From: Fonticula-like sp. SCN 57-25
Taxonomy: Eukaryota
DNA length: 64,000 nucleotides
Reading direction: 5' to 3'
NCBI GenBank assembly: GCA_001724245.1
Contig: MEDX01000002.1
Coordinates: 1-64,000, forward strand
A model generated the notes under the pieces. It was not told where the DNA came from and did not search any database. It saw only the letters and a list, made by a program, of their open reading frames with translations. Each line of letters begins with the position of its first letter. The first letter of the stretch is position 1. Below are positions 2,484 to 63,923 of this stretch, piece after piece. The position numbers and the translations under genes are program-made.

Positions 2484-4470
2484 CTATAACTTTCCCGCCA
2501 CATCCCCCCCCTCTGCCTCCCTCCTAAACACCTTCCCTCCCCCTCCCCTCCCCTGCACCTCCGCCGCCATCCTTCCCATCTGCATCTGCATCGCCCTAAC
2601 CACCCCCCTCAGCCCCTCCACTTCGTCGCGCAGCTGCAGCGTGTCGGCCACGCGGTACGCGTTCTGGGCAGAGGCAAAGCTGCGGAGCTGTTCGTGGAGG
2701 GCGTCCATGGTGAGGCGGAGTTGTTCGTTTTCTTGGCAGAGAAGCATAGAGGTTTCAGTGGCCTAATTGAGAGGAAAAGTGGGTTAGAAAAGGGGTAATG
2801 GGTGATATAATACATGTAGATGGGTATAGCAACACATGATACATATCACATTGATACATTGATACATGTACATGATACATATGCATGGTACATGATCATG
2901 ATAGATACACTGATACATACACAGTCATTGATTCATGTACATGATACATATACACTGATACATGTATATGATAGATACACTGATACATGATACATACACA
3001 TTGATACAAGGACATTGATACATACACATTGATACAAGGACATTGATACATGTACATGAACACATACACATTGATACATGTACATTGATGCATGTACATG
3101 ATACATACACATTGATAGATGTACATATACATTGATACATGTACACTGATACATACACTGATACATGTACATGGTACATACACTGATACATGGGCACATA
3201 CACATTGACATGTACATGATAGATATACAATACATGTACATGATAGACAATACAAGATACATACACATTGATACATGTACATGATACTTACATTGATACA
3301 TGTACATGAGCACATAATGGTCATGTACACATGAATACACGGACAACACATTGACACTTTCACAAATATACCTATCCACGTGGACATCTACATCCCATCC
3401 CATTCATCGTTCGTACCATGTCATGCCGCCTCCCGATTGCCGCAAGATCAACTTCAAGCTGCTCAACACGCAACCTCAAAGCACTACTCTGCTCTCTCAA
3501 CACATTATGCTATTAATACATGTGAGTATCACGTGGCCATGTGAGCAACATCATTATCAAAACATCCACAAACATCCCCTTAACAGCCCCTTTCGTACCT
3601 CTCGCTCTTGGGCCAGAAGGAACGGCTTGATGCGCACGAATGCGCACTCTGCCGCGTGCGCCGGCATTGCCTCGCGCTTGACCGTCGCAGCGCACCCAAA
3701 CCGCTCGCACTCGCACGGGACGGCGTGCTGGTTGCAGCTCTGCATGTGCGCCATCAGATCGCCGCGGGTGACTTGAGCGCCGCAGTCATCGCATGAGACG
3801 AGGGAGGCATCGCAGGCGCTTTGAGCGTGGTGATCCTGGTCGCCGGCGTGGACGGTGAGGCCGCAGCGGGGGCAGGGGACGGGGCGGAAGGTGCACACAA
3901 GCTCGTGATCGGGGATCTGTGATCGCGGTAACTGGGATGCACACGGAGTCAGTGTTGGAATCAGATGGTAATGAGCAAACATGAGCACGACAATCATGAC
4001 AAAAGATACTCAATATGGTGCCAATATCAAACATATCATTATCAATATTCACACAATATAGTCAAATATGCGCCATAGGGCGATATATTGGGGAATAATG
4101 CACGTACCCGGCGGGAGCAGCTGGGATGCCGGCATGGGATTGGGTCGTGCGGGCATGCGTTCGCGAGATGCGCCGCAAGGAGTGACCGCTCGGGCGTCTC
4201 TCCGCAGCCTTGAGACGCGTGAGGGCAGCGGATCCGCAGCTCATTGACGAGGTTGACCACGATGAGACTGGCCGGCGCGAGGTCGGCGTCCGCGATCGCC
4301 ATGCGGCACGTCGGGCATCGCGCATCGGCTCGCAGCGCCGCAGAGATGCACTCGCCGCAAAATGTGTGGCCGCAGGGCGACTGGACGGGTGTTTCAAAGG
4401 GGCACGCGCAGATGGCGCACAGCAGGTTGGCATTCACCGGCTCGACATACTCGTGGGCCGCGGCCGACAT
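2484..4470 (-). CDS. RING-HC + TRAF-type zinc finger + coiled-coil E3 ligase, no MATH domain, 3 introns
   Basis: CAICACPFETPVQSPCGHTFCGECI...CPTC RING; repeated C-x2/4-C...H-x3/4-C TRAF fingers; GTACG..AG introns at about 3932-4107, 3511-3598 and 2764-3417. Confidence 0.88.
2830..3360. repeat. Intronic imperfect repeat island (TGATACA/TGTACA)
   Basis: Dozens of shuffled TGATACATGTACA-like words. Confidence 0.9.
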
Positions 4471-4591
4471 GCCGAACCCACGCAATCAGGCGCAATCAGA
4501 TGGAATAAGCGGAATCAGTCACCGATCTGGAATCACGTGACCGGAATATTTTCTGTTGGGCGCCTTTGACGTTTGGCGGCATCCGGGCGCC

Positions 4592-5424
4592 ATGTCTGAC
4601 GACGAGTCGAGCCCCCCGCCGGGCAAGGAGGGTGGCGGGTACGCGCGTGCTCTTTGCTTATTCGCTTGATTAACCCTTTTTTCTTTCATTTTGATTCATT
4701 CAATGTTTAGTCGCAAGAAGCGCGCCAACCACAATGAGCTGGAGCGCAAGCGGCGGCATCACCAGAAAAACACCATGAATGACTTGCGGGATGCCGTTCC
4801 GATCCTTCAAATGGAAAAGCCGTCGACGGTTTCTATTTTGAGCAAGGGTGCGCCAATATTTATTTTATTAAACGTTGCCTAATCTCTTTGCGGTGCAGCC
4901 AAGGAGTATATACAGATGCTCGAGCAGCGGGCGTACGAGCAGGAGGAGGAGCTCGGCGGACTCAGGAAGCGGCTCAAGCTGCCGCCGCTCTCGGGAAAGC
5001 TCATGGCGCCGCCGGTGTCGGGCAACGCAGACCTGACCAGGAAAAAGGTCGAGTCGGTACGTTATGATGACTGCGTTACTTGGTTCTCACCTCGGCATCC
5101 TTCAGGTGCGCCGGGAAAATGATGAGCTGCGCAATAAAATCATGGACGTCGAGCGTGCGATCGCGTCGGTGCACAAGGGCGGCGCACGGCCAGCGGTGGT
5201 ACGCGCGCACACTTTCTCGCTGTTCAGTCTGTCTCACACCCGGCGATCTTTTGCAGAGTGCCGTGCCGGCCTTTGGATCCGTGGACCCCAATTTGGTTCT
5301 CGCGGCGCACCAGGTACGTTTCAATTGCCGCGCACCGCATTGCTCACGCGCATGGTAGGCCGCTGTGGCGGAAGAAGAGGACGATGTCGACGATGACGAG
5401 GAGGAGATCATTGACGACATCTGA
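4592..5424 (+). CDS. bHLH-leucine zipper transcription factor, Myc/Max/Mad-like, 5 introns
   Basis: Spliced product has KKRANHNELERKRR...LRDAVP...KPSTVSILSKAKEYIQML; the H-E-R basic residues are those of class B (CACGTG) binders. Confidence 0.88.
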
Positions 5425-9220: not shown

Positions 9221-11754
9221 ATGCAAGGCGGCGGCGGATGGGGCCAAGGCGGGCCGCATCGCCCGCAGGGAGGGCAGCAATATGGTAATTTTAACGCGGT
9301 TCCGCCGCCTTCAGCGCCCGCGCGGCCGGCTTACCCTGCCGGTTATGCGGCGCCACAGCCGGGCACGCCGGGCTACGAGGCCTACATGCAGTACGTTTGG
9401 ACGCAGTACTACCAGCAGCAGGCTGCAAATGCTGCCGCGGCATCGGCGATGGGCACAACGACAACTTCTCCTGCGGCGAATGTTTACCGCGGGTCGGCAA
9501 TGCCGTCGGCGATGCCTGCTGCGTACGGCGCCGGCTACAACACCGTGCCGCCGCCCAATCGACCTGCCGCGTACGGCGCCGGTGCGACGCTGTCAGCGCG
9601 CCCAGTGTCGTATGCCGCTGCGACGCGCGGCCCTGTTCAGCTGACCCCCGTGGCGAGCGCGACGGGCGCGGCGGCAACGCAGCGTAAAACGCCGTGGGGC
9701 ACGTGGACTGTGGAGAGCACGGCGGTCAAGCCCGCTGTGCCGACCGCCGACCCCGGTGCCTTTCCGCCTGCACTGCTGTACGCAAACTATTATGAAGAAA
9801 AGTGTCATTTTTGAATAAGAATTGTGAAAGTGAAATGCTTATGATAATGTATAATATGATATTGGTCATGTGAATGTTGACGTTGTCAGTATTGTTGTCT
9901 GTCTTTGTGTGTGTGTATGGTATTGAGTGTGAGTATAAGTACATGATACTTGTTCATATTTGTGCTCATGATACTCACTATTTCTCTTCTTTTCTTCACT
10001 TTTAACACGTCTTTAAGTGAATATACGCGTCGTGCGATGCAACTCGCAAAAACCGACGCCGAACGCAAGCAGGCCGAGACGCTCATTTCGCAGACCATTG
10101 TCGAGGCGACACGTGAGGGTGTTTTGCGGACACGTGATTGGTCAAAGTACCCTCTGCCATCGTGCGCCCATTGGTCCATTTGTTATTAGGGCTTAGACTG
10201 ACACCACGTGGTCGTGTAGGTTGACGTCGCCTGAAAAGATCGCCTTCAAGCTGCCCACCAAAAACATGTACGTTTTATGATGTCATTGTTTTATGTTATT
10301 GTCCATTGGCATGATTGTCTATTGATATGACTGTTGTCTATTAACATGGCTATTTGAGCTATTGATATGACTATTGATATGACTATTGACATGATATTGA
10401 CATGAGTGTTCCATGACATGATATTGACATGAGTGTTCCATGACATGGCTATTGATATGAGTGTTCTATGACATGACTGTTGTCTATTGATATGACTATT
10501 GATATGACTATTGACATGACTGTCCTATGACATGACTATTGACAACGTTCTATAACATGACATCTATTGACATGAGTGTTCTATATTGACACATGACTGT
10601 CCTATATTCCTTCATTTGCTGACTCATCCTTTCCTTTCCTTTTCAGTGCCAAAAAACGCCCCACCTTTGGCGACGACATGACCTCTACCAGCACTTCTTC
10701 CCCTTCCACTTCCCGCCTCGTCCCAGTCACCGCCGCCACCGCCGCCCCCCTAAAAGACACCCCCCAAAACGGCGGGAAAAACAAGGACAAAAACCGCTCC
10801 AAAAAGTCGGTTTTAAAATCACTCATTTCCGACGCGTCCCTTTCCGGCGATCGCTCCGAGCAGCGCGAAAAACGACTGCGCCGCTTCGAATCAAGCTCGA
10901 GTGGGAGTCACGTGACTACAACACGTGACGATGACGTTGATGATTGGGCTGATACTGGGCTAGTAGGCACGTGCACGCGCCTTGAAAAGCGCTATTTCCG
11001 CCTAACTGCCGCGCCAAATCCCGCTGATGTACGTCCACTAACTGTCCTAAAAGAGACACTTTTACTATTAGAACAGAAATGGCGCACAGAAAAAGACTAT
11101 TTTTACATATGCGATCAGTTCAAATCGCTTCGCCAAGATCTCTCCGTTCAGCATATTCGAAATGACTTTACCGCGCTTGTCTATGAGTCACATGCACGAA
11201 TTGCGCTTGAAAAAGGCGATATTGGCGAGTTTAATCAGTGCCAGACACAGCTACGTGAGCTCTATTTACAAGGAATTCCAGGTAGCCAATCAGAATTCCT
11301 TGCCTATCGCATTCTCTACTTTTTAATGTCAAGATCTGCTTCAGACTTGAACAATGCACTCGCCATATTGACCCATATTGAAAGATGTCAGCCTGAAGTG
11401 CAGCATGCACTAAAAGTGAGACACGCAAGTGTGACTGGCAATTACATAAGGTGGTTTCAATTATACTCGTCTGCACCGCATATGGGAAAGTATCTTATGG
11501 GTCACTTTGCGCAGCGTGAAAGGCTTGTTGCTATGCGTGCAATTTGCAAGTCATTTAGGCCGTCAATTGAAGTAGAAACGGTTAGGGCATGGCTTGGGTT
11601 TGAAAGGGAAAAAGTGGAAGAGTTTTTGGGTGAAATTGGGGTGACGTATGTGGAGAAAAACAGGAAAGTGATTGATACAAAGGCGTCGATGCAGGCGGTG
11701 GTGAATGCGGCGCATAGTGCGAATGCGAGGGTGGATATCAAGGGGCAGTTGTAA
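9221..11754 (+). CDS. LENG8: SAC3/GANP-domain protein, LENG8/Thp3-like, 3 introns
   Basis: VGTCTRLEKRYFRLTAAPNPADVRP, YICDQFKSLRQDL, VYESHARIALEKGDIGEFNQCQTQL. Confidence 0.92.
10300..10600. repeat. Intronic imperfect repeat island (CTATTGAYATGA)
   Basis: Visible degenerate tandem words. Confidence 0.9.
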
Positions 11755-12252: not shown

Positions 12253-15200
12253 TCACTTTTCCAATCTCGCCTTTTGCCTCTCATACGCAATCCTCAAAAA
12301 CCTATTCATCCCTCCAATAAACCTCTCCCCTCCCTGCTTCAACCCCTCAATCCTCCTTAAAAGTGCATACGTCATCCTCTGCACGGCATCACTCGGGTGA
12401 TACAGTGACTGCGCAATTGGGTACAAACCGCCATGCTGCGGCGTCAAATAGGATAAAAGTTCAATTACTTGCTCATCTGACGTGACACTTTTTGTAATGT
12501 CTTCAAATAAGGAAATAACTTCCTTTTCGGGCATATTCTGCGCCACAAATAGCCTTTTTAGGACCCTCTTAACGTCCACTCCCTTTATGGCCGCCGCATC
12601 TTTCTGATCCGCCGCATCCTTGACATAATTCACATACGATTCATTCCCAGAATTCTTCCACTGCTCTGCCCTCCTCTGATTGGCCAGAGTAAATTTCTTG
12701 CGCGCAACTTCATCTGCAAACTCTGCCTCGTCATTGGCCAAATCAACAATCCCTTGCGCATATTCCCGGAATTGCAGCCTGATCTGATCTTCGGAATGAT
12801 GACTCGAAATGGACAACAATACACGCTGAATAAACTCATTGTCCATGGCCACGTGGGCATCAGGGGCAGAAGTGGCGGGAATGTGTGAGGCGAGTTTGAC
12901 TGTGCCCGTGGCCACGTTGCATAGGACGTCCCACCATTTCTCCATTTCTTCAAAGCGGGGGTTGGTGACGCCGGCAATGAAACCGGGACTAGAAAGGAAA
13001 GAAGGGAAACGGTAAGTGAAAGAAGGGTTAAGAAGGAGAAGAAGAGTAATATAATACATCAATGATGATCATCAATTATACTCAATGATGGTCATCAATG
13101 ATACTCAATGATCATCATCAATGACACTCATTACCATCAATGATACTCATCAATGATACACATGATACTCAATGATACACATGATACTCGATGGTACTCA
13201 TCAATGGTACTCATACATGATCATCAACAATGGCACTCATCAATGATACTCATCAATGATACTCAATGACACTCAATGACACTCATACCATCAATGACAC
13301 TCAACGATACTCAATAATATTGCTCAATGATACTCATACATGATACTCATACATGATGATCAATCATCAATGACACTCAATGATACTCAATGATACTCAA
13401 TGACACTCATGATCATCAATGATAATGACACTCATCATCATCAATGATACTCATGACACTCATCAATGATACTCATCAATCATCAATGATACTCTATGCC
13501 ACACAATGACACTCAATGACACTCAACAACACTCAATAATACTCAATACCACTCAATACCAATACTATTACCATCCCCTTCCCCTACTTTTCCTCTCCCC
13601 CCCCTATATTCCAATCATTTCCGTACTAACTGAGCATTGTATCCAAATTAACCAGATTCGTATACGGAAACGCCCTCTTTGTAAACCCCCTCAGCGGTGG
13701 CGCCATCATCGCACACGCCGCAAGCACGTAATTGGCGACTACGCCAGAGGGCATGTTGTAGCCGCAAAAGATGATGCGCTGCTGGCGGAGGAGAGCGTTG
13801 AAGATGAGCATGACGCCGTTTTCGCCTTTTGTTGTTGGTTGGGCGAATTTGCGGACCAGTTCAATTAGGGAGAACTGAAGTAATGGGTCAGTAAGGGAAG
13901 GAAAGTAGACAAAAGTAGACAAAAAGTATCTAAAAAGTATACAAAAAGTATAAAAAATACATCAAAAAGTATCTATAATACATCTATAATACATCTAAAA
14001 GTATCTATAATACATCTATAATACATCCATAATACATCCATAATGCATCCACAATACATCTAAAAAACATCCATAAAACAACATCATATCCACAATACAT
14101 CCAAAAACCACCCTCAAATTACCCACAATACATCCAAGAATCACCCCCAAATTCACCCCCAACTTCACTTAATCCAATAATCTCCCTCATTCGTACGTCT
14201 CCGACCTCGTCCTCGTGCAGTGTCACAGGCAACTTCATCGGAATATCCGTCTTTCCAAACCTCACTTTCGTCGCAAAGAACCTCCTATCAACCCCCGACA
14301 GCGCATCTGCCCCGCCCGCAGCCCTCACAATGCGCCGCTCGCTCTTGCTCAGCACCGGGTAATTCGTCAGATCCATCGCCATGATGTTGTCGTAGAGCTG
14401 CTGGATCACGCCGATCTCGGGCGTCTTGAAGAACTCATCGAGCGCCATGAGGAGGAGCGGCTTGTAGACGTGCACGGACGAGTGCTGCGTGCAGATGGCG
14501 ATGGCTTTGGTGCGCGCGCCGCGCTTGACGCCGGGGATGCTGTTGGTGCGCACGATGTTGAGGCAATGCAGGAAGGGTTTGGGGGTGTCAGGGGCAGAGT
14601 CTGGGGTGGGAGTGATCGCGGCATTGTCGGATGGGGAGAGGGCGGCGGCGGCGGCGGCGGCGGAAAAGAGGGAGAGGAAGGAGAGGAAGCGGGTCTCGTC
14701 GTCGGGGGTGGTGAAGCGGACGCCGATCGCGACGTCATCGTCGATGACGACATCGTACATGGGTTCCATCTGCTGGAACTGGAGAGCGGTGCTGCGGCGA
14801 CTATGGAAAAGGGTGAGAAAAAGAAGTAAAAGAAGAAAAGAAAGAAGAAGAAAAAGTAGAAAAAACAGTAAAAGAAGAGAAAACAAAGGTAAAAATAACA
14901 TAACAATTACAGGTAAATCACATCATCATCGACCTTGCGTACAGTATTTTGTCGGTGCCTGAGAATGAGATTGAGTTTTGGCCGAGCGTGACGGTTTGTT
15001 TTGCCGTGCCGATCATTTCCCACGCCTGGCTGCTCTCCGTGTAGAGGTACACGTAGCCTTCCAGGGTGCCGACCGCGAGCGCGATCGCATTCTCGGCCTC
15101 GGATACGGTCGCGGCGGCTTCGGCATGCAGCGTCGATGCCGCGGCGGCCGCTTTGGCGCGCGCTTCGGCCTCTTGCGCCGCCTTGCGCACGCGTACGGCC

Positions 15201-15655: not shown

Positions 15656-17638
<1,983 letters not shown>

Positions 17639-17759
17639 TTACCGGCCGATGCGAACTGTCTCTCGTTTACCTTATTGTCATAAATGCATCGCCTCCAAAT
17701 AAAGAGTGTCTACACATACATGTGTCATTTGATATATTGGGAGATTATTATCATTCCCT

Positions 17760-18045: not shown

Positions 18046-18102
18046 GCAACTTTCGTATCAATATCAGCCTATATTACTATACAATACAATTACATATTTG
18101 TT

Positions 18103-21051: not shown

Positions 21052-21979
21052 ATGTCGCTGCGTGTTCTCGTCGGGTGCAAGCGCGCCATTGATTATGCGG
21101 TCAAGATCCGCGTCCGTTCTGACGGGCTCGGCGTCGAGACGCAGAATGTCAAGCACAGCATGAACCCCTTTGACGAAATCGCGCTCGAGGAGGCTGTCAA
21201 GCTCAAGGAGAAGAAGCTCGCCGCCGAGGTAAGTCTTGTTTTTCCGCTCTTTTTGTGTGCCCCGCCGGCTGGCTAACAGCGCCCTCGCCTTAATTCAGGT
21301 TATCGCCGTGAGCTGCGGCGGCCCCGCCTCGCAGGAGGTTCTCCGCAATGCGCTCGCCCGCGGCGCCGACCGCGCGATCCATGTCTCCTCGGAGGACAAC
21401 ATTGAGCCGCTGGCCGTCGCCAAGGTGCTCAAGGCCGTCGCCGAGAAGAACAAGGTCGACCTCGTGCTGCTCGGCAAGCAGGCCATCGACGACGACTCGG
21501 CCCAGACCGCGCCCATGACCGCGGCGCTCCTCAACTGGCCCCAGGTACGGCTCCTTTTTTGGTTTTCTTTCTCTGACGGCGGCATCAGGGTCTCTTTGCG
21601 GCCAAGCTGGACTACAGCCCGGAGACCAAGGTCGTCACCGTCCTCCGCGAGATTGACGGCGGCCTCGAGACGCTCAACCTGCAGACGCCCGCCGTCGTGT
21701 CGGCCGATCTCCGCCTCAACGTGCCCCGCATCACCAACCTCCAGAACATCATGGTGCGAATCATATTTTTTTTCGCTTGCTGCTGCTGACCTTGCCGCGC
21801 TCCTGCAGAAAGCCAAGAAGCGCCCGATTGAGGCCGAGACGCCGGAGAGCCTCGGCGTCACTGTCGACTCGCGCCTCAAGGTCGTCAAGGTCGCCGAGCC
21901 GCCGAAGCGGACGGGCGGAGGCAAGGTCGCCAACGTCGATGAGCTCATCGCCAAGCTCAAGGCCGCCGGCACCCTGTAA
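21052..21979 (+). CDS. ETFB: Electron transfer flavoprotein beta subunit, 3 introns
   Basis: [43 protein letters not shown]. Confidence 0.97.
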
Positions 21980-24002: not shown

Positions 24003-24740
24003 ATGTTGTCGCAAAAGTTTGCTCTCGCCACGATGGCGATCCAGATGGTACGGGGCGCGCTTCGCCATGGGGATGTCGCCGCTGACCGCATGGGATTGTA
24101 GGTGTACACTGCGCTGCTCGTCGCCATGTCGTTCGCCGCGACGGGGCTATACGGCGCGACGTTCGTGCCGGGCATCCTCTGCTCGGTCGCCTTTATCATT
24201 TCGCTGATCGGCACCATCAGCATTGCAAAGTACAGCGGCGTCATCTCTTTGCTGGTGCGTGGCCCCTTGGAATTCTGTTTGCCTCTCGCCCGATGATGGC
24301 CGTGCTCACACGTGCAAAAGGTCGGCGTCTTTTCCTTCCTTTGGGGCCTTTTCGCCATCGTCATGGCGCTCTTCTTCTTCAACGTGTTTGGCATCGGCCT
24401 CCCGATCGCCGACTACGGCAGCCTGTTCGCCGTCGTCATCTACGTGAGCCTCGGCGGCAATGTCACATCCTACGTGCTGCTCATCATCGGCGGCATCGTC
24501 TACGGCCTCAGCGCGCTCATTGGCGTACGCAGCGCTATAAATAACCCTTTTTGCTGACGAGCCGCGCGCAGATCCTCGTCTTTTCCTTCACGGTCTGGTT
24601 CTTTAAGGATCTCAAAGAATCCAACATCATGAGCTGTACGCACTCGTTTTTTGACACTTTTTTATGACTTTTTATGACTTTAAATGGCTAATAATGTGCG
24701 CGCAGTTGACTATAGCGACAAGTACGCTGGCTTCAACTAA
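24003..24740 (+). CDS. Small multi-pass membrane protein (about 4 TM), 4 introns
   Basis: Five exons joined by GTRCG..AG introns give a continuous hydrophobic ORF ending FDYSDKYAGFN*. Confidence 0.65.
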
Positions 24741-25222: not shown

Positions 25223-26465
25223 TTACAGCTTGTCAAATGACGTCTTTCCACCCACCGTGACGATCTGCACAAGGCTGCCGCTCTCAACCGACTCGACATT
25301 CTGCGCCCACTCGAGCGTCTTACTACTCTTTTCATTAGCAAAAACATACCAAAAACATATCAAAAACATATATGAAAAAGTGCGTACGCAGCGATGACGT
25401 CAGTCGGCGTCCACGTGCCAAAGTCGGTTTCCGGGGTGGACCACTGGCGGTTGGCGGGCGTGTCGATCATGACGGGGAGGATCGCGAGGGTGCGGGCGCC
25501 GGCGGGCATGCCGCTGCCGTCGGCGGCGAGGCTGGCGGTGAGCTGGTGGACGGCGGCCTTGGCGAGGCCGTAGCCGATCATGCCTGGGGAGGGTTAGTGG
25601 GAAAGAAAAGGAAGGGAAGAGGGAAAGTGGAGGGAAAATGGAGGAAAAGAGGGTAAAATAAAAAAATGATAGTAAAATGATATAAAACAGTTAAGAAATG
25701 ATACGAAAATGACAAGAAAATGACATGAATAATGATCGTTAATGATGCCATGATGCCATGATGTCCATGTCGATGATGCCAATGACAATGTCAACATCAG
25801 TGATGTCAATGACACCAATAGTACTAATACAAATAATATCATAATACCCCAATAATACCATAATACTCCAATATTACCAATAACATCATTTGAAAAGGGA
25901 CGTACCGGGGGTGCCCTGGGCGGCGGCCTTGGCACCGGTGAGGACAAGGAGGCCGTTCCTAACCATGCATTAGCCCCATCATACCACGCCAATCTGCGTA
26001 CGGGGCAAGGAACTTGGCGGCGAGGGCGGCGGCGATGGTCGACGACTGCACGCTCTGCATCCAGGTGAGGCAGCAGTTCTTGATGAAATCTGTATGGCCA
26101 TGCGTCAGGAAAAAGGTCACGAAAAAAAGAGGGGATGCGCACCGCCCGACGAGGCGTTGCCGCCCGCCCAGCCACCGGCGACGCAGATGATGGCCGAGAA
26201 GAAGCCCTCGCCGGCAAAGGCGGCGACGTCGGCGGTGAGCTGCGCGCGCGCGTTAGGGATCGAGATGGAAAGGCGTGGGAACATGTCGTACGCCGGCGGC
26301 CTGATCCTCCCAGCTGGCGCCCGACTTGGCGACGACGTTGCGCGCGGCCTCAGCGTTGGGGGTAAAGTCAAGCGAGGTCACCTGCCAGTTGGCAGCAGCA
26401 AAGGCGGTCACGACCGCGCGGCCAACGGCACCATTGCCGCCAAACACAAGCACCTGGCGCGACAT
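25223..26465 (-). CDS. QDPR: Dihydropteridine reductase, 5 introns
   Basis: [53 protein letters not shown]. Confidence 0.95.
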
Positions 26466-38906: not shown

Positions 38907-40198
<1,292 letters not shown>

Positions 40199-41123: not shown

Positions 41124-42089
41124 TCACTTGCTCTTGCTGTTCTCGTCGCCCTCGTGCTGCAGCGTACGCTGAAAGGAAAAAAGTGAGTGGCGCGCCACGA
41201 AAACAAGCGCGCGAACGCACCTTGAGCGTCGTGATCTCAGCATCGCGCTTGCGGATCTCGGCCAGCGCCTCATCGTGGGCGCGCTTGGTGTTGGCGGCCT
41301 GCTGCTTGAGCGTGTCGATCTCGGTCTGGAGAAGCGCGCGCGCAGACTCTGACTCTTGGAGCTGCACGAGGGCGTTAGACAAAAGAGAAAGAAAAAGGGA
41401 AGGGAGGCGGACCTGGGCCTGGATCTCGGCCGCCTCGACGGGGGTCGCGCGGTTCCTGAGGCTATTATTGAAAAAATATGTTAGAAAAACACGGTAAATT
41501 ACAATAAAACTCAAGAAAATTCAATGAAAAGGACATTAAAAGACAAAAGATGCAAAAAAAACGTACCTCATTTCGGTGACGGCATGTGCGGTAAAGTGGG
41601 CAAGGAGGCGGTAAAGAACGCTAAGAAATTGTGAGCGACATTGCGTGCGCATCCCGCGTATCGTACAAGGCAAGGAAGAGACCAAAGCCGGTGAGGTACA
41701 CGTTGCGCTCGGCGTAGAAAAGGTTCGAGTACGGGTTGTACGCGCTCATGACGGCGACGGCGCCGGTGGCATTCGCCGCCTTGATCTTTGCCGTCTCCTT
41801 GTACGTCCTGTTGATGGCATCTAGTTCACCGCACGGTAAGCAAATGTATAATAACAGCTTATATTACAGGCTTTAAAAAAAAGAAGGAAAGAAGCGCACC
41901 CATGAACAAGAGGCCGATCAGGCCGAGGAGCACGACGATGCCCGTCGTTACGTACGCCGACACCTCGACGCGGCCGAGGCGGGCGAGGATGCGGTGGCGC
42001 AACGCACCGGGAAGCGGGACGACAAGGAAGAGGATGCCAAAGACCTCAATTCCGAGCACAATAAACGCGAGGTTATACATGAGCGACAT
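41124..42089 (-). CDS. BCAP31: BAP29/BAP31-family ER protein, about 5 introns
   Basis: MSLMYNLAF..LGIE...VVPLP, LFYAERNVYLTGFGLFL, three TM plus coiled coil. Confidence 0.88.
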
Positions 42090-45275: not shown

Positions 45276-47905
45276 TTACGCGCTGCTTGCCTCGGCAGCC
45301 TTGGCAGCCTTGGCAGCCTTTTCCGCGGCCTTGGCGGCCTTTGCGGCGGCCGCCTCGGCCTTTTTGATCGCATCAGCAGCCTTTTTCGCCGCATCGGCCT
45401 CCTTCTTGAGCTGCCTCTCGATCTCGCGCTGCACAAAAAATAACAACAAAAATAACGCAAATGGTCAGTTTTTATCGTAAATATAATAATTTTCGCACGT
45501 CGATCTTTTCCTGCCTTTCGCGGATGAGCGTCTCGCGGCTATCGAGCTTGATCAGCGCCTTTTGACCCTTGGGGCGATCCTCGAGGCGAACGCCAAGCTC
45601 GACAAGCTCAACGTCGCGGAAACGGTCGCACAGCGCAAAGATGTCGTTCGCCTCCTTTTTGTCGCGCAGCATCGCGCGCACTTCGTCGCGGAAAGCGGCC
45701 AAAGCTTCGAGGAAAGGCAAAACCTTTTCTTCCAACTGGCGGGAAATGTGTCAGCAAATGGATCTGATTGGTTGAAATTGCGTACATTGGCGCCGCCGAG
45801 GCTCGATGCCGATCCAAAGCCAATGTCGTCCGATCCCGACTCGACAACGCCGAAAATCTATAAAAAACGGCATTTCAGCACACAAAAAAAGGTGTTTCAT
45901 TGTCGTACGCGAAGCATGCGCGTGATGTAGCGCGCGATCTTGGCGAGCACCGCCGTGCACGGCCGATCCGTGTGCGACATGACGTACACGTTGGACATCC
46001 TCACCATCTCGAGCAGCAGCTGCAGCGCCGTGCGCGTATCAATAGAGTCGCACATTGCCTCGTGAACGCGCTGCTGCGCATCCAAAAATCCCTGCAAAAG
46101 CGCGCGCTCATCTGCCGCGTAGTTGTGCCCGCCGACCGCAATGTCGTTCTTGTGCTCGCGGAGCAGCGCCTGCAGACCCGAAAAGTAGTTTTTAAAGGTC
46201 GTCTCAACGCCAATAGCCTGTTCCATAGACTCTTTCTTATAGTCAAGAATCGCCGCCCAGTCGTGCATGAGGAACAAGATGCGAATCTGGCGCGCCGTAT
46301 ACTTTTCCAGCGCCTCGCGGATCGACACAAAGTTCTTGAGCGACTTTGACATCTTTTGGCCCTCAATATGAAGATGGCCAGCGTGCAAAAAGTAGTTCAC
46401 CCATTGGTCGTTGCAGTGGAACGCTTCTGATTGGGCGAGCTCGTTGTCATGGTGAGGGAAGGAAAGGTCGATGCCGCCGCCGTGGATGTCGAGCGTGCCG
46501 CCGAGAACGTCGCTCGCCATCGCAGAGCACTCAATGTGCCAGCCAGGGCGGCCCTGCAGTGCACAGTCAGCGCTAAAATAACTTCAAATAGCAGCAAAAG
46601 TTTAAAAATAGCAACAAAAACGGACCTTGCTCCACGGCGAGTCCCACTCTGGCTCGCCCGGCTTGGACGCCTTCCACAGCGCAAAGTCGGCCGGGTCGCG
46701 CTTTTCGCCGCCGGCAAGACTGATTGAGCCTTCGCCTTCCTCGATGAGCTGCACGTTGAACGCCGATTTGGGCTCGAGCTTGGCGTAGTGGTGGTGCGCG
46801 TCGCCGTCAAACTTGCGCGTGTCAAAGTAGACCGACCCGCCGCTCTCGTAGGCAAAGCCCTCGTCGAGGATCTTTTGGGTAAAGTCGACGATGTTCGGGA
46901 CGTACTCGGTGACGCGCGTCAGAATGTCGGGGCGGCGAACGCCGAGCGCGGTCATGTCTTCCATGTACTTTTCTTCCCAGTACATGGTCAGCTTGCGCGA
47001 GATCTCGTGATCCGTCACCGTCGCGCCCTTCTGTGGTCACGTGTAAGAGCAAGATCATCTGAAAAGCATCCGTACCTGCTTGTCGAGATGGGCAGCGAGA
47101 ATGTCGCGCGCGGCCTCGTAGACAATGACGCTCTCGGCCAATGGGAGAGCGCCGTTCGCGAGCAGGGCACGTGCGTTCTTCAGGGCGGCCGAAAGTGCCT
47201 CGGCCGTGTCAAAGTTCATCTTGAGCTTGGCATCGGTCTTGAGGCGATCAGCAAAGGCGGGCGTGGCCACGTGGGAGGCGTAGTCGGTGCCCTTGGGGAC
47301 GCCGAGGCGCGCCTCGACAAAGGCGGTCCAGAGGGACTCGAGCTCGCTCGCGATCTCGGCGGTGACCTGGGGGTTGGCGGCGACGTGCGCGTCAAACAGG
47401 TAGTTTTGGCGAGCGCGGACAATGATCTGCGCAAAATTAGACCAAAGAAAAGAGGAAAAGAAAAAGCGCACCTTGTCGTCAATGTCGGTGATGTTCATCT
47501 GGTAGAGAACGTCATAGTTAAAGTACTCTTCCATCACGCGGCGCAGAATGTCAAAGGTGATGTAGGCACTAGAAGCAAGAGTCAGGACCAGGGATCGATA
47601 GCGATGCTGCGTACCGCGCATGGCCCATGTGAGACGCGTCATAGACGGTCGGGCCGCACACATACCACAGAACGCGGCGGCCGTTCTGGGGAACAAAGTC
47701 GACCTAATGTCGGGATTGTGAGCCAGGTAAGATCAAAGAAAAAAAAGGACGCACCTTGGACTGGGTGAGGCTGTTGAGCAGCTTGAGGCCCGTGGGAGCG
47801 GCGCCAGACGGAGTGGGCTATGGTAGTCATGTTAACAACCGTTTGGCACGTAAAGAGCAAGCGTACCTGAACCCAGCCGGCCCTTTTGCGAGGCTGCGCC
47901 GACAT
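45276..47905 (-). CDS. CARS: Cytoplasmic cysteinyl-tRNA synthetase, about 9 introns
   Basis: [65 protein letters not shown]. Confidence 0.97.
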
Positions 47906-48394: not shown

Positions 48395-48727
48395 ATGTCT
48401 GGCCAGAACGGTGGTCTCGTGAACAGCGTGAGCCGCGTCGCTTACTTTGGCTTCCTCCGCCGCAACTCGGTACGCTTTAAACACCATTTTTAACACGCCT
48501 TTTCTTTGCCTTTGGCTGACGCTTTACGCAAAGGTGTTCGTTACCGGCATCCTTGTTGGCGCCTTTGCCTTTGAGATTGGCTTCGACAAGGTCACCAAGA
48601 ACTACTTCCAGAGCCTCAACACTGGCGTACGTACCGCATATTTCCCTTAGTTTTTTTGTTCTAACGTGGCTTTTTTGCGGTTCTGCAGAAGTCGTTTGAG
48701 GAGATTTACCCCAAGTTTGTCCAGTAA
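48395..48727 (+). CDS. QCR9: Cytochrome bc1 complex subunit 9; 2 coding introns plus probable 5'UTR intron 48226-48374
   Basis: FLRRNSVFVTGILVGAFAFEIGFD......NTGKSFEEI. Confidence 0.88.
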
Positions 48728-55288: not shown

Positions 55289-57121
55289 CTACTTGGTCGC
55301 GTCGATCGACTGCCTCAACGTGTCCTTGTACGAAATGATGTCGCCCTCCCAGCGCGTGATGGTCCCCTTGTCGCAGATCCAAATCTCCTCGGCCACCTGG
55401 TTGATCAGGCGGAAATCGTGACTCACGAGCACGACGCCGCCCTCAAAGTCGTTGATGGCCGCCGCGAGCGAGTCGATCGTCTCGAGGTCCAAGTGGTTGG
55501 TCGGCTCGTCGAGCAGCAGGAGGTGAGGCTGCAGCTGCGCGAGCCACGCAAAGATGATGCGGCAGCGCTGGCCGTCCGACAGGTTGCGGATGATGGTCGT
55601 CTGCTCCTTGCCAGTGATGCCAAAGCGGCCGACGAGGCGGCGCATGTCCTCCTCGGTGAGCACGTTCGGGAACGTCTTGTGCATCCAGTCGAGCGGCGTC
55701 ATGTTCATGTCGAGGATGTCCTGAAGGTGCTGGTGGTAGCGAGCGACCTTGAGGTGCATGTGGCGGCGGATCTGGCCCTTGGTGGGGGTCAGCTCGCCGT
55801 CCAGCAGCTTGAGAAGCGTCGACTTGCCGGCGCCGTTCGGGCCCACGAGCGCCACGCGCGTGTCGAGGTCAATGCCAAAGTCAAGGTCGTTGTAGATCGG
55901 CGGCGTGCCGTTCTGGTAGTCAAAGGCAACGTTCTGGATCATGAGCACCGGCGGCGGGAGCTTGCCGCAGTCAGGGAAGGAGAACTGGAGCACGCGGTCC
56001 TTGACGACCTGCTCAGTGAGGCCGCTCGAGACGACCTTGCTGAGGAGCTTCTCCTTACTCTTGGCCTGGCGGGCGAGCTTGGCGTTACCGTGACCGAAGC
56101 GCGCAATGTACTCCTTCATGTGCTTGATCTGGTCCTGCTCCCACTGGTAGCGCTTGTTCTGGTTCTCCTCGAGCTCAGAGCGCGTCTTGATGAACTGGTC
56201 ATAGTTGCCAGAGTAGTACTTGAGCTGCTTCTGCTGCATGTGGATGATGTTGGTGCACACGCCGTTCAAAAAGTCCTGCGAGTGCGAGATGAGCACCAGG
56301 ATGCGGTTGTACTTGCTGAGCTCCTCCTCGAGCCACACGCAGGCCTCGAGATCCAGATGGTTGGTCGGCTCGTCGAGAAGAAGGAGCGCGGGGCGGACAA
56401 AGAGCGCGCGGGCGAGCGCGATACGCATGCGCCAACCTCCGGAAAAGTCGCGCGTCTTCTTGGCCTGCATCGCCTTGGTGAAGCCGAGACCGGCAAGCAG
56501 CTTGGCGGCGCGCGTCTCGGCAACCTCAGCGTCGAGCTCGTCAAGGCGCTCGTACAGGGTCATGAGGTAGTCGCTCTCGGCGCCCTCGGTGGCGATGACG
56601 CGCTCGGTCTCGGCCTCGAGCCAGAGACGCTCAGAGTCGACCTCCATGACGCACTCGAGCGCGGTCTTGTCCGACGCCTCGATCTCAGACTTGAGGTGGA
56701 AAATGTCAATGTGGTTGGGGATGGGGAGGTCGCGCTCGCCGAGGGACGCGAGCAGCGTCGACTTGCCGCATCCGTTGGCGCCAATGAGACCATAGCGGCG
56801 GCCACAGTTGAGGTCGACCTTGGAGTCGGTCAGCAGCTCCACACCATAGTACGTGATCGAAAAGTTGTGGATCTGGACGTCGCGCGACTGCATGTGCGAC
56901 GTGATCTGGCCCGTCACCGTGCGCGCGGCGGCGGCCTCGGCGGCGCTGATCTCCTCGACGCCAATTGGGCTGCTGCTGCGAGGCGTATCGGAAGCGGTGC
57001 CGGGCTGCGAGTCGTTGATGTCGAGGTCATCCATGGCCTGCTCGGCAGTCTTGCCCTTGCCGACGGTCGTGCTCTTCTCCTTCTTCTTCAGAGCGCGCTT
57101 CTTGGCAGCATCAGACACCAT
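55289..57121 (-). CDS. ABCF2: ABC-F family ATPase ABCF2/Arb1, intronless CDS
   Basis: Two ABC cassettes: [42 protein letters not shown]. Confidence 0.97.
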
Positions 57122-57463: not shown

Positions 57464-58948
57464 TTACGTCTTGGGGCGGATAGACACCTTACCCTGCCGC
57501 AAGTGTTGCAAAAGGATCTTGGTTTTTGATCCGTCCGTCCGCCTCACGGCAATCTAAAGAAATCGTCAGCGAAAATAATGTTGTTGTTAGAGGCGCGTAC
57601 CTCGGAGCTGTTGACGGCGGTGATCGTGCCGGGGAAGCGACTCGATTCGCGGTTCTCGATATAAATCTGACCACCGCGCGAGTACCGATTCCCCTGGTAC
57701 ATAATCGAGTTATTCTCATAAATTACCTCGTCCATCTCCTGCTCGCGCGCATCCTTGGCAACTGTGGTCATTGTCAGTATACAAAAAGGGGAAAAAAAGC
57801 ATTGGCGCACCAGCGGCAGCTCGGCGCGTCGCCACGGCGGGGTTGGCCTAGTATGGCGTCAGCAAAACAAACATGGAATCAGCATGCGTACGCTGGTGAT
57901 TATCAAAAGATCCTCGAGGATTTCGTTGTCCTTGAGAGCGTGCTGGATAGTGGGACCTGCACAGACGCGCGTCAGCACAAAAAAACCACAAAAAAAGCGG
58001 CGCGCACCGCTCAGCACGCGGCGCTTTGCCGTCTTGGTGTCCATCGGCTCGACGCCGCCGCGCCTCCTGAGCTTGCGCAGCGGGGCCAGGCGGCTGCCCA
58101 TCTCGGACGCGAGCTCTATATAAAGCAGAAAATGGTCAGAAAAAAGGGTTAACTTGGCGGGAAAGATCGCACCGGTCGTGATGTCTATGCTGCCCTTCTC
58201 CTCCTCGAGGCGCTTGCGCTTGTCCTGCAGCGACGAGATCATGCGCTCGCGGACGCTCTGCACCTCGCCCTATATCAGCATGGGTTAGATCACGAAAAAA
58301 GAGCGGTGATGATGCCGCACGGCATAGTCAGTGTCGGCGCCGTTCTTGTCCTGCGTGCAGACGGCCTCGATGGTCTCGAGCTGGCACGTGCGCCACATCT
58401 CGGCCATCTCCAGGCGCTCAGCGCGCCTCTGCTCGAGCATCTGGATCGACTCGACAAACTCGGGATGCTCGCCTGCGGAACGCATCACGAGCCATGTTAG
58501 GTGGGATCAACATCAAAAGAAAGAGGGACGTGGGCGTACCGGCGGCCACCTGCTGGATCTCGCCGTCCAGGCTGTGGAGCTTTTCCTGGTACAGGCTGCA
58601 TATTCAAACACAGTCAGTAACAGTAAAGCAAAAAAAGCGCTTGAAAAGAGAAAGGGCGCACCGATCCTTGAGCTCTGAGAATTCCTTCTCGATGCGCGAC
58701 ATTTGCTCGAGGGCTTCCTGGCGGCGGCCCTCGCTGCCGTCGGCATCAGCCTCGCCTGCGCCACACAATTAGCGGCAAATAAAACACAAAAACGTTGACG
58801 CACCGTCGGTGGAGTCGTACTCCTCCTCGGCCGTGTTTTCGGCCTGCTCGCGAGCGTCGGCAGTCTCGCCCATCACGAGCTCGGTCTCGCTGTCGCTGTC
58901 ATCACCGCCCGCGTTCGCGAGCAGCATCGCCTTTGAGGTCGGCGCCAT
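57464..58948 (-). CDS. SDS3: Sds3/BRMS1-like Sin3-HDAC subunit, about 7 introns
   Basis: EKEFSELKDRLYQEKL, GEHPEF, KLRRR, GPTIQHALKDNEILEDL, C-terminal RRTDGSKTKI..LRQGK. Confidence 0.82.
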
Positions 58949-59212: not shown

Positions 59213-61496
59213 ATGTCGTCGACGAGCGCTGCGCCGGCCCCGTCCCCCGCGGCGGAGGGCAAGCCCGTCTACGTGTCCGAAGCCAAGGGCAGCGACGAGA
59301 CCGGAGACGGCTCCGAGGCCAAGCCGTTCAAGACGGCGCTTCACGCGCTGTCGCTCGACATCAACGCCATCGTTTTTGTCGAGGGCGCCGAGGGGTTCGC
59401 AAAGATCTCTGATGCCGGCCTGAAGAAGCAGAAGAAGCAGTTGGAGCTCAACGAGAAGAAGGCCGCCAAGGCCGCTCAGCTCGCCGCCGCCGCCGCCCAA
59501 AAGGTACTTTTTTTTGGTCCTTTTCCCTCTTTTTCTGCCTTTTTTCCTTGCTTACGCGTGGACGATTCCAGGCCGAGGAGGAAGCGCGCCGTCTCGAAGA
59601 GGCCAAAAAGATCGTTCTCGTCGAGGACGCCTCTCTCCCCGCCGCCGTCCAGATCAAGATCCGCGAAGGCAAGGAGCACCGCGGCAAGCGCGTCAAGATC
59701 AGCGGCTGGGTCCATCGCCTCCGCTCGCAGGGCAAGGCGCTCCTCTTCATCGTCCTCCGCGATGGCACTGGCCTCGTGCAGTGCGTCCTCAACGACCGCC
59801 TCGTACGCCTTTTTGCAGCTTTTTTGCACCTTTTTCTAATGAATTTTGCAGTGCCAGACGTACAATGCGCTGACGCTGACGCGCGAGAGCACCGTGACGA
59901 TCTATGGCGTGCTCACTGAGGTGCCCGAGGGCCAGTCGGCCGAGGGCGGCCACGAGCTCAAGGCGGACTACTGGGAGCTCGTCGCGGCGGCGCCCGGCGG
60001 CGCAGAGTCGGCCGACAACAAGTTTAACACGGAGAGCAACCCTGATGTGCTCCTGGACAACCGCCACATGGTCCTTCGTGGTGACAAGGGTACGAATTGT
60101 GGGGTTTTTTGTGGGGTTTTGTGTGTTTTGTAGAGTGTTTTTACACTCTTTTTGTACCTTTTGTGACATTTTTGCCCTTATTTTTTTAGTTTTTGTGTCT
60201 TTTTCGCCCATTTTTTCCCCTTTCTGTGTCTTTTTGCGCGCTTTTTCCACTTTTTCCACACTTTTTTCCCCACTTTTCCCCACTTTTCCCCACTTTTTCC
60301 TCACTAAATTTCTCTTTCTCAGCCTCCAAGATCCTCAAGGTCCGCGCTGTCGTCCTCAAAGCCTTCCGCGACCACTTTTACGACCGCGGCTACTTTGAAG
60401 TCACCCCCCCCTGCATGGTCCAAACCCAGGTCGAAGGCGGCTCAACCCTATTCGAATTCGACTATTACGGCGAGCCCGCTTACCTCACGCAGTCGTCCCA
60501 GCTGTACCTCGAGACGGTCATTCCCTCGCTCGGCGACGTTTACTGCATTCAAGAGTCGTTTAGGGCGGAAAAGTCGCGCACGCGTCGTCACCTGAGTGAG
60601 TATACGCACTTGGAGGCGGAGTGTCCGTTTATCGATTTTGACGAGTTGCTCAACCGTGTCGAAGACCTCGTACGTAGCATAAAAGTGTTTTTAATGTGGA
60701 AATAGAGTGTTTTTGGTGTGGAAATGGTCGTTTTTTGGTTGGTTTTGGGTGGTTTTTGGTCGTGTTTTGGTACTTTTGGGTTGTTTTTGGTCATTTTTTC
60801 GATACTTTTTAGAGTGTTTTTGGACATGTTTTTGATACTTTTTGCTTGTTTTTTATCACTTTTTGCCACTTTTCACTCACTTTTTACTTACCTCTCCTCT
60901 CTTTTCTTCCCTTCCCTTAGATTACGGATGTTGTTGCGCGCGTTCAGTCGAGCCCCTTTGCTCATCTCCTCACCGAGCTCAACCCCACTTTTGTCGCCCC
61001 CAAGAAGCCCTTCCGCCGCATGGCCTACGCCGACGGCATCAAGTGGCTCAACGAGCACGGCATCAAGAAAGACGACGGCACCGACTTTGTCTTTGGCGAG
61101 GACATTAACGAAGCCCCCGAGCGCAAGATGACGGACGCCATCAACGAGCCGATCTTGTTTTGCCGCTTCCCCGCCGAGATCAAGTCGTTCTACATGCAGC
61201 GCTGCGCGGACGACCGCCGCGTGACCGAGTCTGTCGACGTTCTCATGCCGGGCGTCGGCGAGATCGTCGGCGGGTCGATGCGCATCTGGGACATTGCCGA
61301 GCTGATGGAGGGGTACAAGCGGGAGGGGATCGATCCGTCGCCGTACTATTGGTTTACGGATCAGCGCAAGTATGGCGCGTGCCCGCATGGGGGGTATGGG
61401 CTGGGCGTGGAGAGGTTCTTGACGTGGCTGCTGGGGTTGGAGCACATTAGGGAGGTGTGCATGTACCCGAGGTTTGTCGGGAGATGCAAGCCGTGA
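59213..61496 (+). CDS. NARS: Cytoplasmic asparaginyl-tRNA synthetase, 4 introns
   Basis: [70 protein letters not shown]. Confidence 0.98.
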
Positions 61497-62032
61497 AAAG
61501 GGCAGATGATGATGAGAATAAAATTGCCAGAGAATAAATTGCCAGTTCATTAAATATGTTATTTAAAAAGGGAATAGTACATATTCAAAAGTATAATATG
61601 CTGTAGTACAGCAGTGCACTGCAACATGCTCATGGTCATCGTATGTACATCATATCATGATTGGCATGGTGACCGGCATTGCCATCGTACATGACATTTC
61701 TCATGCGGGTCATCTGCAATTTAGCACATTAATATGTCGTATTTCTTTCATATTTGCTTACAATTTCCTGCATTCAAGCATGTATAACGCTTGCTTTCCA
61801 GTTCTATATTTCCTTTTCATACGTGCATGCTCATGCTACATCTTTCCCACATCATCCACGTGGCATCTAAGGATCCACGTGGCCAACGACCGTGTTTTGT
61901 TGTGCTTTGGTCGGGTAAGATCGCAGGCGCGCCATCAGTTCAACTTTTTCTCTGCTGCTGGTGACTCTACCGCTGCACTGAACCCCATTCCGCGTCTGTC
62001 TCTGCTGCTGGTCACATTGCCTCTTTGCTGAA

Positions 62033-63923
62033 ATGGCCGGTCTGAACGCCTATTTTGCTGATCGCTTCGGCTCGACCGATGACTTTGATGAAGAGGATTC
62101 CGATGCCGCCTCTGACGAGTATGACGAGCCGCATGCCGATGAAGGCGCCGCCTCTGGCCTCGCCGACAAGCCGCTCTCCTCTTCCCGCCCCTCCATGACG
62201 ATCCTCGACGGCCCCCAGCACGATCTCGAGGCCGTCAGCGACGAGGAAGAGATGGATTCCTTTGACGAGTCCTTTAACGATCTCGCCGACATCCCCGTCT
62301 CGCCCGTCCCCATTTCATCCTCGATGCTCAACGACACTGCTCCGACGCCCGTTGCCGTCAAGGACACTCCCCGCAAGCCGCGCGTCGTCGGCCGCGCCTC
62401 GCCTCTCCGCCAATCCCGCGTCGCCGAGCTGAGCGGCTCCCCGATGCCCGCATCCCCCAAGGATGCCCTCGAGTCGTCGTCATCCTCGGCATCATCCCCG
62501 TCATCTCCTTCCTCTGACTTTGCCTCTTCGAACCTGAAGCGCAGCAGCTCCTCCGCGAGCCGCGTGAGCGCGCTGTCGCGCAGCGGCACGACCGCGCGCC
62601 GCGCCGCCGAAGCGACGATCAACCGCATCAAGCACAAGCTCAAGATGCCCGCCGGCGAAAAAGAGTCGCTTTATGTGCCGTTTGTGACGGCGGCGTCGGG
62701 GTCGACGGAGGTGCTGGGGGCGCTGCCGGCGAACACGCTCGAGGCGTTTCACGCGTGGTCGGCCAACAGGAAGCTGCAGCCGTCCAAGCAGACGTACGAG
62801 AGGGGATGAATGGGAATGGGAAAGTGTGGGAAAAAGTGTTGTTTGGTGACATTTTGTGTCATTTTACATCACTTTACATCATTTTATGTCACTTTTTGTG
62901 TCATTTTAGATCACTTTTTGGTGTCATAGTGTGTCATGTTGATTTTCAATTGTGTGTTCATGTGAACAATATTGGTAATTTTGTGTTACTTTTGTGTTAC
63001 TTTTGATATCATTTTATATCACTTTTGATGTCATTTTGTGTCACTTTTGTATCACTTTACTTTATTTTTGTATCATTTTATGTCATTTTGCCTCCTTTTT
63101 TCGTACTTTTTCCCTCCTTTTCTCCCCACTTACTAATTCTCTCTTTCTCTTCAGTTTCTTTGATACTGTTGGTGCGATGAGCAGCAATTTGTTTGAGATT
63201 TGCTTTTACGCCAATGGCGAAACATCCGCGCCTTATCTTCTCGACATTTGCTTTGGCACACTTGTTGTGCGTTCGTGGGAAACTGGCGCTGTTCTGAGAG
63301 AGTTTCCCTATTCAATCATCAAGAGGTGCGAAAGAAGAATAAGAATATGTTGGGATGAATGTAGAGCGTATATTGAATGGTTATTGTGGTTATTGTGGTT
63401 GTTATTATGTATGACTATCATATGTGACTCATGTATGGTATCATATGTGAGCACTATGGTATCATATGTGTCACTATTACTTATCATATGTGATCATTAT
63501 GGTATTATATGTGACTCAGTTATGGTATCATATATGATACTTTTACTTCATATATGGTCATTTATGGTATCATATGTGTCACTTTTCCGTATCATATGTG
63601 ATACTTTTACCTATGATTTTGACACTTTTACCTATCATTGTGACACTTTTCCTTTTCATATCTGATCATCATTATGTCACTTTTCCTATTCATTTTCCCT
63701 TTTCTATATTTACTTACGCTATTCCCTTAGTCTTTACCATTCTGTTGCTGACAAGAATGGAAATCGCCATCTTGTTTTCGAATTCGTCCGAAATGCTGAC
63801 ACACTCTCTGAGACTGGCAAGGTCCACGTGGCCCGCCATGCACTTGTCACGGAAGATCGCGAGACGCTCTATAGTGAGATTAAGAGTGCCATGCTGGCGC
63901 AGACAAAGAGGGCGAGCACGTGA
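62033..63923 (+). CDS. Uncharacterised protein: acidic Ser-rich disordered N-terminus, possible PH/PTB-like C-terminal domain, 2 long introns
   Basis: Exons about 62033-62792, 63155-63326 and 63731-63923 join in frame through GTRCG..AG; C-terminal beta strands plus a final helix. Confidence 0.6.
63410..63680. repeat. Intronic island (TATCATATGTG)
   Basis: Visible degenerate tandem words. Confidence 0.88.

Follow-up and report, generated by a model that had tools for sequence, protein, structure and literature searches.

The introns predicted in the 64-kb stretch of eukaryotic DNA analysed here (the window) carry an atypical 5′ splice site, or donor, of the form GTRCG, in which the best-kept position after the GT is a C at intron position +4. 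This consensus is real in the window: GTRCG starts 65 of 89 introns, 88 of which were predicted blind to every donor position beyond the GT, a result that bears out, and extends from about 45 introns, the near-uniform use of GTRCG claimed in a first-pass annotation of the same DNA. All donor statistics given below come from these 64 kb, and as seen there the 5′ splice-site consensus has apparently shifted lineage-wide to G/GTRCG (slash, exon-intron boundary). As an explanation we put forward, with a probability of about 0.45, that in an uncultured, nucleariid-like opisthokont that is aerobic and intron-rich the U1 small nuclear RNA (snRNA) has independently acquired the 5′ end ACGUAC, with tens of thousands of donors following. 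If true, this would be the first case in Opisthokonta of U1 and the 5′ splice site co-evolving, and it would repeat the Mastigamoeba change by convergence.

GTRCG donors and the introns that carry them

Coding scores were taken from a codon log-odds table trained on eight confident coding stretches of the window. In a first pass, frame-compatible GT/GC...AG pairs between adjacent coding segments were ranked by coding score alone; a GTRCG donor was top-ranked at 24 of 46 exon junctions and at 18 of the 26 where the gap was ≤150 nt, and several of the misses were GC decoys two to four bases away from a GTRCG. The second pass used a dynamic-programming gene parser that scored codons, ATG, stop and reading frame, with an intron length penalty and an acceptor term (a pyrimidine preceding the AG, and a CTNAY no more than 42 nt away), donor positions beyond GT being unseen; its acceptor/branch term and its codon model were both trained on this window. 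After strand overlaps had been resolved the parser returned 88 introns in 29 gene models. Enolase intron 4, which it had skipped, was found through translation of the C-terminal exon and was backed by tblastn, bringing the total to 89. The 27 predicted introns longer than 120 nt are uncurated and were kept in the denominators.

The 65 GTRCG donors comprise GTACGC (14), GTGCGT (11), GTACGA (11), GTACGT (10), GTGCGC (9), GTACGG (5), GTGCGA (4) and GTGCGG (1), so that their +3 base is A (40 donors) or G (25), and C occupies +6 in 23. The short introns, those of ≤120 nt, number 62, and GTRCG opens 52 of them; +4 is occupied by C in 57 and by A in two, +5 by G in 55 and +3 by a purine in 58. Across both strands of the window GTRCG occurs at just 360 of 7,084 GT sites (5.1%) and +4 C at 1,802 of them, which corresponds to an approximately 16-fold enrichment of GTRCG above all GT sites and to binomial P values for the short set of 3e-57 (GTRCG) and 2e-28 (+4 C). 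The short introns behind the +4 C majority belong to roughly 25 genes, encoded on either strand, and the GTRCG introns span positions 5057 to 60920, with 25 on the plus and 40 on the minus strand. Recognition information lies almost wholly in +1 to +5, and the exon side and +6 contribute little; in the short introns G was found at −1 in 38/62 and A at −2 in 22/62, and +6 was without preference (A 12, C 24, G 5, T 21). The longer introns (n=27) start with GTRCG in 13 cases, and most of the other 14 are probably parser errors in which neighbouring genes or weak exons were bridged.

Departures from the consensus mostly leave its C in place. The donors GTCCGT (46625 and 39855), GTACTT (59504), GTACAA (35896) and GTACTA (20859) all keep +4 C, as had been noticed for the first three variants in the first-pass annotation. 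The single textbook GTAAGT that it had reported, in the first ETFB intron at 21229 (gag/GTAAGT), is likewise unique among the 89 predicted donors and is otherwise fully complementary to U1; a doubtful GTAAGC donor was also predicted at 45279. Homology supports a number of the junctions. When two enolases (P0127 and P0132) were aligned by tblastn they fell into four exon blocks abutting the predicted junctions, which confirmed the four GTRCG introns previously placed in this gene, and the five assigned to a QDPR gene were recovered by the parse. The ETF profile of Pfam runs continuously over three exons (profile positions 2-31, 35-116 and 121-162), as does the tRNA-synt_2 profile over two exons of asparaginyl-tRNA synthetase (20-136 and 150-306). 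Judged from the sequence, this support from frame and homology is independent of the imposed GT and AG. A bHLH gene mentioned in the first-pass annotation was not located in Pfam scans that covered part of the exons.

By their features the introns are ordinary GT-AG, U2-type spliceosomal introns. The 65 GTRCG introns have a median length of 57 nt (range 41-394); the predicted coding sequence amounts to 28.3 kb, which gives about 2.3 of them per kb. A CTNAY branch motif was already visible in the first 26 introns, chosen by coding score alone before any branch term was applied; in the final set it was found in 63/65 GTRCG introns, in most of them at a distance of 10-20 nt from the 3′ end, a count that is partly circular as the parser rewarded the motif. 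The usual forms are CTGAC, CTAAC or CTCAC, 10-20 nt upstream of CAG or TAG. The combination of short introns with a branch motif close to the acceptor suggests that such an intron is recognised as a whole. A loose pattern GTRCG...CTNAY...YAG gave 97 matches against 57.9 ± 6.9 in block shuffles, a modest excess that is not our main evidence. None of the 89 predicted introns starts with the U12-type GTATCC, AT-AC introns not having been searched for.

Trivial causes of the motif were also considered, namely base composition, CpG richness, misplaced introns or the recent spread of a single intron family. The window as a whole, with GC-rich coding stretches and AT-rich spacers, has a GC content of about 0.53 and a CpG observed/expected ratio of 1.2, which together with the training of the acceptor/branch term and codon model on that same DNA could favour such an artefact. 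However, the parser was blind to the donor beyond GT and the enrichment over all GT sites is large. Intron interiors are T-rich (A 20, C 20, G 19 and T 41%) with a CpG observed/expected ratio of 0.88, and because of this composition CG at +4/+5 would be expected in approximately 4% of introns, against the 85-90% seen; the CpG-composition effect that the first-pass annotation had named as a possible refutation was thus tested and rejected. An all-against-all blastn of the 65 introns revealed no introner-type copies, the only matches being microsatellites, mainly those shared by enolase introns 3 and 4. With the junctions of two genes backed by homology as well, we consider an artefact the least probable of all the explanations weighed here. 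Enolase introns 3 and 4 are themselves unusually long (181 and 394 nt), being swollen by mutually similar microsatellites of the GTATGT/GATGCT type.

Pairing with U1 and competing explanations

A U1 that matches the donors, with G opposite +4, is slightly favoured over a canonical one. The five bases of GTRCG would pair contiguously with a U1 5′ end reading ACGUAC instead of ACUUAC, the ACAGAGA box of U6 would stay standard with its C pairing to the +5 G, and the remaining specificity would come from short introns and a CTNAY 10-20 nt before YAG, through intron definition. When the standard U1 5′ end was set against the 65 donors, most commonly six of nine positions were paired, always with an interruption at +4, and 20/65 donors paired at five or fewer. 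The mean predicted duplex energy, in a calculation that ignores pseudouridines and U1 proteins, is −4.0 kcal/mol with standard U1 and −9.5 kcal/mol with G at U1 position 5, compared with −14.0 for a textbook donor and −8.7 for the yeast consensus. Flanking positions that could offset the +4 mismatch, as they do in Micromonas, are weak here (−1 G, −2 A and +6 T), which slightly favours a matching U1, and similar slight support comes from the retention of +4 C where +3 or +5 deviates and from the otherwise full complementarity of the GTAAGT donor. By comparison with described lineages, the donor architecture more closely resembles that of Mastigamoeba than that of Mamiellales.

Searches for the snRNAs themselves began with Rfam, which gave no match in the window at gathering scores, no snRNA even at E values of up to 5, and no tRNA gene. 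Metagenome contigs were then scanned for U1 with a short pattern of 5′ end and loop I in which G or T was allowed at position 5. This returned at least 118 loci, and T was found at position 5 (ACTTAC) in 115 of the 118 listed; the three with G were bacterial-looking and were rejected as U1 by Rfam. No contig of the present organism was recognised among the 118 listed (tetranucleotide r up to 0.69; no match by blastn), and the 10 listed loci most window-like in tetranucleotides showed no GTRCG introns under the same donor-blind parser. Two U6 genes met on metagenome contigs of other organisms were standard. Several of these contigs carry clustered snRNA genes: contig L004 (1-2834) has 5S rRNA, split over both ends, with U2, U6, U4, U5 and U1 on one strand, and resembles a single repeat of a tandem array; contig L023 (1-4770) has approximately 20 tRNA genes interleaved with 5S, U6, U2, U5 and U1; and in contigs L002, L049 and L101 snRNA genes lie within about 1 kb (U2 and U1; U4, U5 and U1; and U2, U1 and U4, respectively).

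A number of points weigh against a changed U1. We infer the U1 state of the organism purely by reasoning, no snRNA of its own having been seen, and no genuine U1 with G at position 5 was found among the 118 loci listed. The junctions are predicted from DNA alone, and the duplex energies leave pseudouridines and U1 proteins out of account. At +3 the donors have mostly A (40/65) and at +6 C in 23/65, unlike the GUGCGC of Mastigamoeba. In 28,287 bp of predicted exons GTRCG occurs 71 times in sense and 86 times in antisense orientation, with no sense depletion and unused copies tolerated, and therefore the pentamer alone is insufficient as a donor. According to the excerpted text of bioRxiv 10.1101/2022.06.08.495308, U1 is unchanged in most lineages with atypical donors, examples being Thecamonas trahens (+4 C), five Mamiellales, 69 Saccharomycotina, Giardia and Trichomonas, and excerpts of PMC10581693 give an unchanged U1 in 227/230 Saccharomycotina. 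The strongest competitor leaves both U1 and U6 canonical and treats +4 C as a tolerated U1 mismatch that is favoured at a later step or by proteins; candidate agents are the U6/U5 hand-over in the tri-snRNP (small nuclear ribonucleoprotein), the proteins U1C, LUC7, SNRNP27K and Prp8, and the way in which U6 is modified. The same must hold in Thecamonas trahens and Mamiellales, and two of the three +4 C lineages described in the excerpts of the bioRxiv study keep a standard U1. Yeasts switch between A and U at +4 without a change in U1 or U6, tracking the loss of METTL16/SNRNP27K (PMC10581693, as excerpted), and few known RNA sequences are conserved as strongly as the U1 5′ end, as the preponderance of ACTTAC among the listed loci illustrates. 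However, pairing would then be very weak (the −4.0 kcal/mol and 20/65 donors given above), there is no conserved exon AG or +6 T of the kind that accompanies +4 C in Micromonas, and the near-absence of +4 A (2/62), the perfect match to U1, would be left unexplained. We regard a canonical U1 as a serious possibility, short of even odds and ranked only marginally below the changed one.

The changed U1 has two further competitors. Standard and variant U1 genes could exist together, the variant serving the GTRCG majority and the standard form the few GTAAGT-like donors; there is a precedent in the standard and modified U1 candidates of Physarum (excerpted in bioRxiv 10.1101/2022.06.08.495308), and the one fully canonical donor at 21229 would fit, but GTAAGT makes up only 1/89 predicted donors and nothing of such a mixture was observed directly, so that we think this arrangement unlikely. 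Less likely still is a change in U6, with the central A of ACAGAGA replaced by a base that pairs with +4 C. An A to U change in the U6 box is reported for Cyanidioschyzon merolae, the only such case cited in the available part of PMC10581693, whereas that same text describes ACAGA as invariant in all 240 species surveyed, and the two U6 genes that we met were standard, though from other organisms.

The organism and other features of the window

The organism is probably an opisthokont and possibly lies near the nucleariid amoebae, judging from its protein sequences. For ABCF2 nothing closer than 71% was found among the 120 matches listed, which included corals, with Fonticula alba as the sole named protist. 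Enolase exon 4 shares 80-83% identity with metagenome proteins, against 79% with a Nuclearia transcript, and in a maximum-likelihood tree of enolase (39 rows, 208 residues) the window grouped with Nuclearia and metagenome sequences with an SH-aLRT (Shimodaira-Hasegawa-like approximate likelihood ratio test) support of 92, a weak placement in that it comes from one gene of 208 residues on a long branch in a quick tree. The stretch 15500-25000 is covered at 0.99 by a bioreactor metagenome run, possibly its source, and partly (0.28-0.35) by aquatic, second bioreactor and wastewater metagenome runs, with small shares in 14 'fungus metagenome' runs; no RNA run was among the 20 runs listed as carrying it. 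The genes for QCR9, ETF, HemD and peptide deformylase presumably mark an aerobic organism with a translating mitochondrion. Two known +4 C organisms were considered as the source and dropped. Thecamonas trahens was set aside on the occurrence of the stretch in bioreactor, wastewater and aquatic metagenomes and on the lack of any T. trahens protein among the 120 ABCF2 matches listed or the enolase matches listed. Mastigamoeba was set aside on the presence of the QCR9, HemD, ETF and peptide deformylase genes and on a GC content of 53% here versus 60.7% there (PMC8136499, as excerpted).

A number of the genes and the AT-rich repeats are collected in Table 1. Pfam was run on single exons or open reading frames (ORFs), and not every exon was scanned. 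Further Pfam matches were obtained to histone, bZIP, RING-TRAF, HemD, SAC3/GANP, SPA-domain, Afi1-like, DUF7906, Sel1-repeat, Nse1, PTH2, CLPTM1, TDP1, RTE1-like, peptide deformylase, HSF and SWIRM-ZZ-Myb families, with a weak one to Bap31; no splicing-factor gene was found among the exons scanned in the window. The parser fused cysteinyl-tRNA synthetase with downstream genes as far as 42582. A plus-strand ORF at 31832-32593, in a lower-GC stretch, has a CCHC zinc knuckle and a weak match to a retroviral-type aspartyl protease; it is gag-like and probably a gag-pol remnant of a retroelement. Another, at 62033-62809 (plus strand), is intronless and encodes 258 amino acids with strong coding statistics; it has no Pfam match, and a search among 5.8 billion proteins gave no homologue but itself. 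Coding regions have a GC content at third codon positions near 0.8. AT-rich imperfect tandem repeats fill almost every intergenic spacer as well as enolase intron 4, in units mostly of 10-12 nt or multiples (e.g. ATACATTGATACAT, TCAATGATAC and TTTTGTGTCA), close to one turn of the DNA helix.

Table 1. Genes with their predicted introns, and AT-rich tandem repeats, in the window.
Feature	Position	Strand	Introns and donors	Basis
Enolase	15656..17635	+	15744-15800 GTGCGT, 16094-16139 GTACGC, 16372-16552 GTACGT, 17181-17574 GTACGA	Pfam Enolase_C; donor-blind parse; last exon by translation; tblastn, four exon blocks
ETF-domain gene (ETFB of the first-pass annotation)	21052..21979	+	21229-21298 GTAAGT, 21545-21588 GTACGG, 21754-21808 GTGCGA	sequence; parse; Pfam ETF profile over three exons
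Small membrane-protein gene	24003..24740	+	four, all GTRCG	parse
Short-chain dehydrogenase (QDPR of the first-pass annotation)	25223..26465	-	five, all GTRCG: 26240-26291, 26090-26142, 25959-26001, 25584-25905, 25323-25387	parse; weak adh_short/NmrA on two exons
Prenyltransferase	38907..40126	-	five: four GTRCG and GTCCGT (39806-39855)	Pfam Prenyltrans; parse
Four-intron gene	41124..42089	-	all GTRCG: 41821-41899, 41621-41666, 41462-41566, 41169-41220	parse
Cysteinyl-tRNA synthetase	45900..47905	-	GTACGC, GTGCGT, GTACGG, GTCCGT (46554-46625)	Pfam tRNA-synt_1e; parse
QCR9-like (complex III subunit)	48395..48727	+	GTRCG: 48470-48533, 48627-48688	Pfam UCR_UQCRX_QCR9; parse
ABCF2	55289..57121	-	intronless	Pfam; used to place organism
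Sds3-like gene	57544..58948	-	seven, all GTRCG: 58756-58803, 58596-58661, 58473-58539, 58270-58320, 58116-58172, 57848-57891, 57762-57810	parse; Pfam Sds3 on one exon, below curated cut-off
Asparaginyl-tRNA synthetase	59213..61496	+	59504-59571 GTACTT (+5 exception), 59803-59851 GTACGC, 60090-60322 GTACGA, 60670-60920 GTACGT	Pfam AsnRS_N, tRNA-synt_2; parse
AT-rich tandem repeats	2854-3307, 10359-10584, 13057-13547, 13902-14162, 17221-17553, 17772-18024, 29010-29193, 52935-53277, 62842-63090, 63416-63665			

Comparison with known +4 C and shifted-donor systems

Homogeneous atypical donors normally mark intron-poor genomes. The window is dense in introns, at approximately 2.3 for each kb of coding sequence, but +4 C stands at about 92%, a combination for which the only described parallel is Mastigamoeba. 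A lineage-wide shift of this kind is rare but already known, and the present organism would add another case, apparently independent; lying near fungi and animals, it would offer a natural replicate for weighing a change in U1 RNA against proteins or the U6 step as the driver. Gene-prediction programs whose training relied on donors resembling GTAAGT will produce wrong gene models in this organism. A literature search for GTRCG or GURCG as a splice consensus returned only primers and unrelated matches, supplementary files that possibly hold per-species donor logos being outside the search, and one on Capsaspora and nucleariids found nothing on donors.

The systems described elsewhere resemble the window to differing degrees. 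Saccharomycotina use GUAUGU donors with +4 U, tied to the loss of METTL16/SNRNP27K with U1 and U6 unchanged (PMC10581693, in its excerpted text), and share with the window a lineage-wide +4 switch away from A; they differ in that the switch is to U, which is able to pair with the A of U6, and in having intron-poor genomes. Entamoeba, with GUUUGU donors and the U1 sequence AACAAAC (excerpts of bioRxiv 10.1101/2022.06.08.495308), is a previously described case of a donor co-evolving with the U1 5′ end, but with another motif and in intron-poor parasites. Among +4 C lineages, five Mamiellales are given GYGCGY donors and a standard U1 in excerpts of the same bioRxiv study, the canonical introns of Micromonas starting AG/GTGCGT (PMC3879977, as excerpted) and those of Ostreococcus outside chromosome 2 GTGCGTG (PMC2483917, as excerpted). 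They have +4 C, +5 G and a CTGAC-type branch motif in common with the window; however, these are green algae with an invariant G at +3 and T at +6 and a conserved exon AG, which gives extensive U1 pairing, and such extended complementarity (exon AG and +6 T) was not found here. Thecamonas trahens, an apusomonad, combines a +4 C preference with a standard U1 (bioRxiv 10.1101/2022.06.08.495308, as excerpted) and is like the window in that preference, in its common canonical branch-point motifs and in belonging to a lineage near the opisthokonts; it is treated as intron-reduced in the excerpts of that study, unlike the window with its density of introns.

The nearest likeness is to Mastigamoeba balamuthi, for which excerpts of Roy & Bowser (bioRxiv 10.1101/2022.06.08.495308) give donors of the form GUGCGC that lack extended pairing, together with a U1 5′ end reading ACGUAC, the very change in U1 that the first-pass annotation had predicted for the organism studied here, as one option beside a changed U6 box or altered METTL16 dependence; its genome has 3.4 introns per gene (PMC8136499, as excerpted). 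Both are intron-rich, with near-uniform +4 C and +5 G, no extended pairing beyond +1 to +5, and +6 often C. They differ in that Mastigamoeba is an anaerobic archamoeba with +3 G, whereas the window has an aerobic gene set and +3 mostly A, and its consensus is not GUGCGC (+3 G and +6 C).

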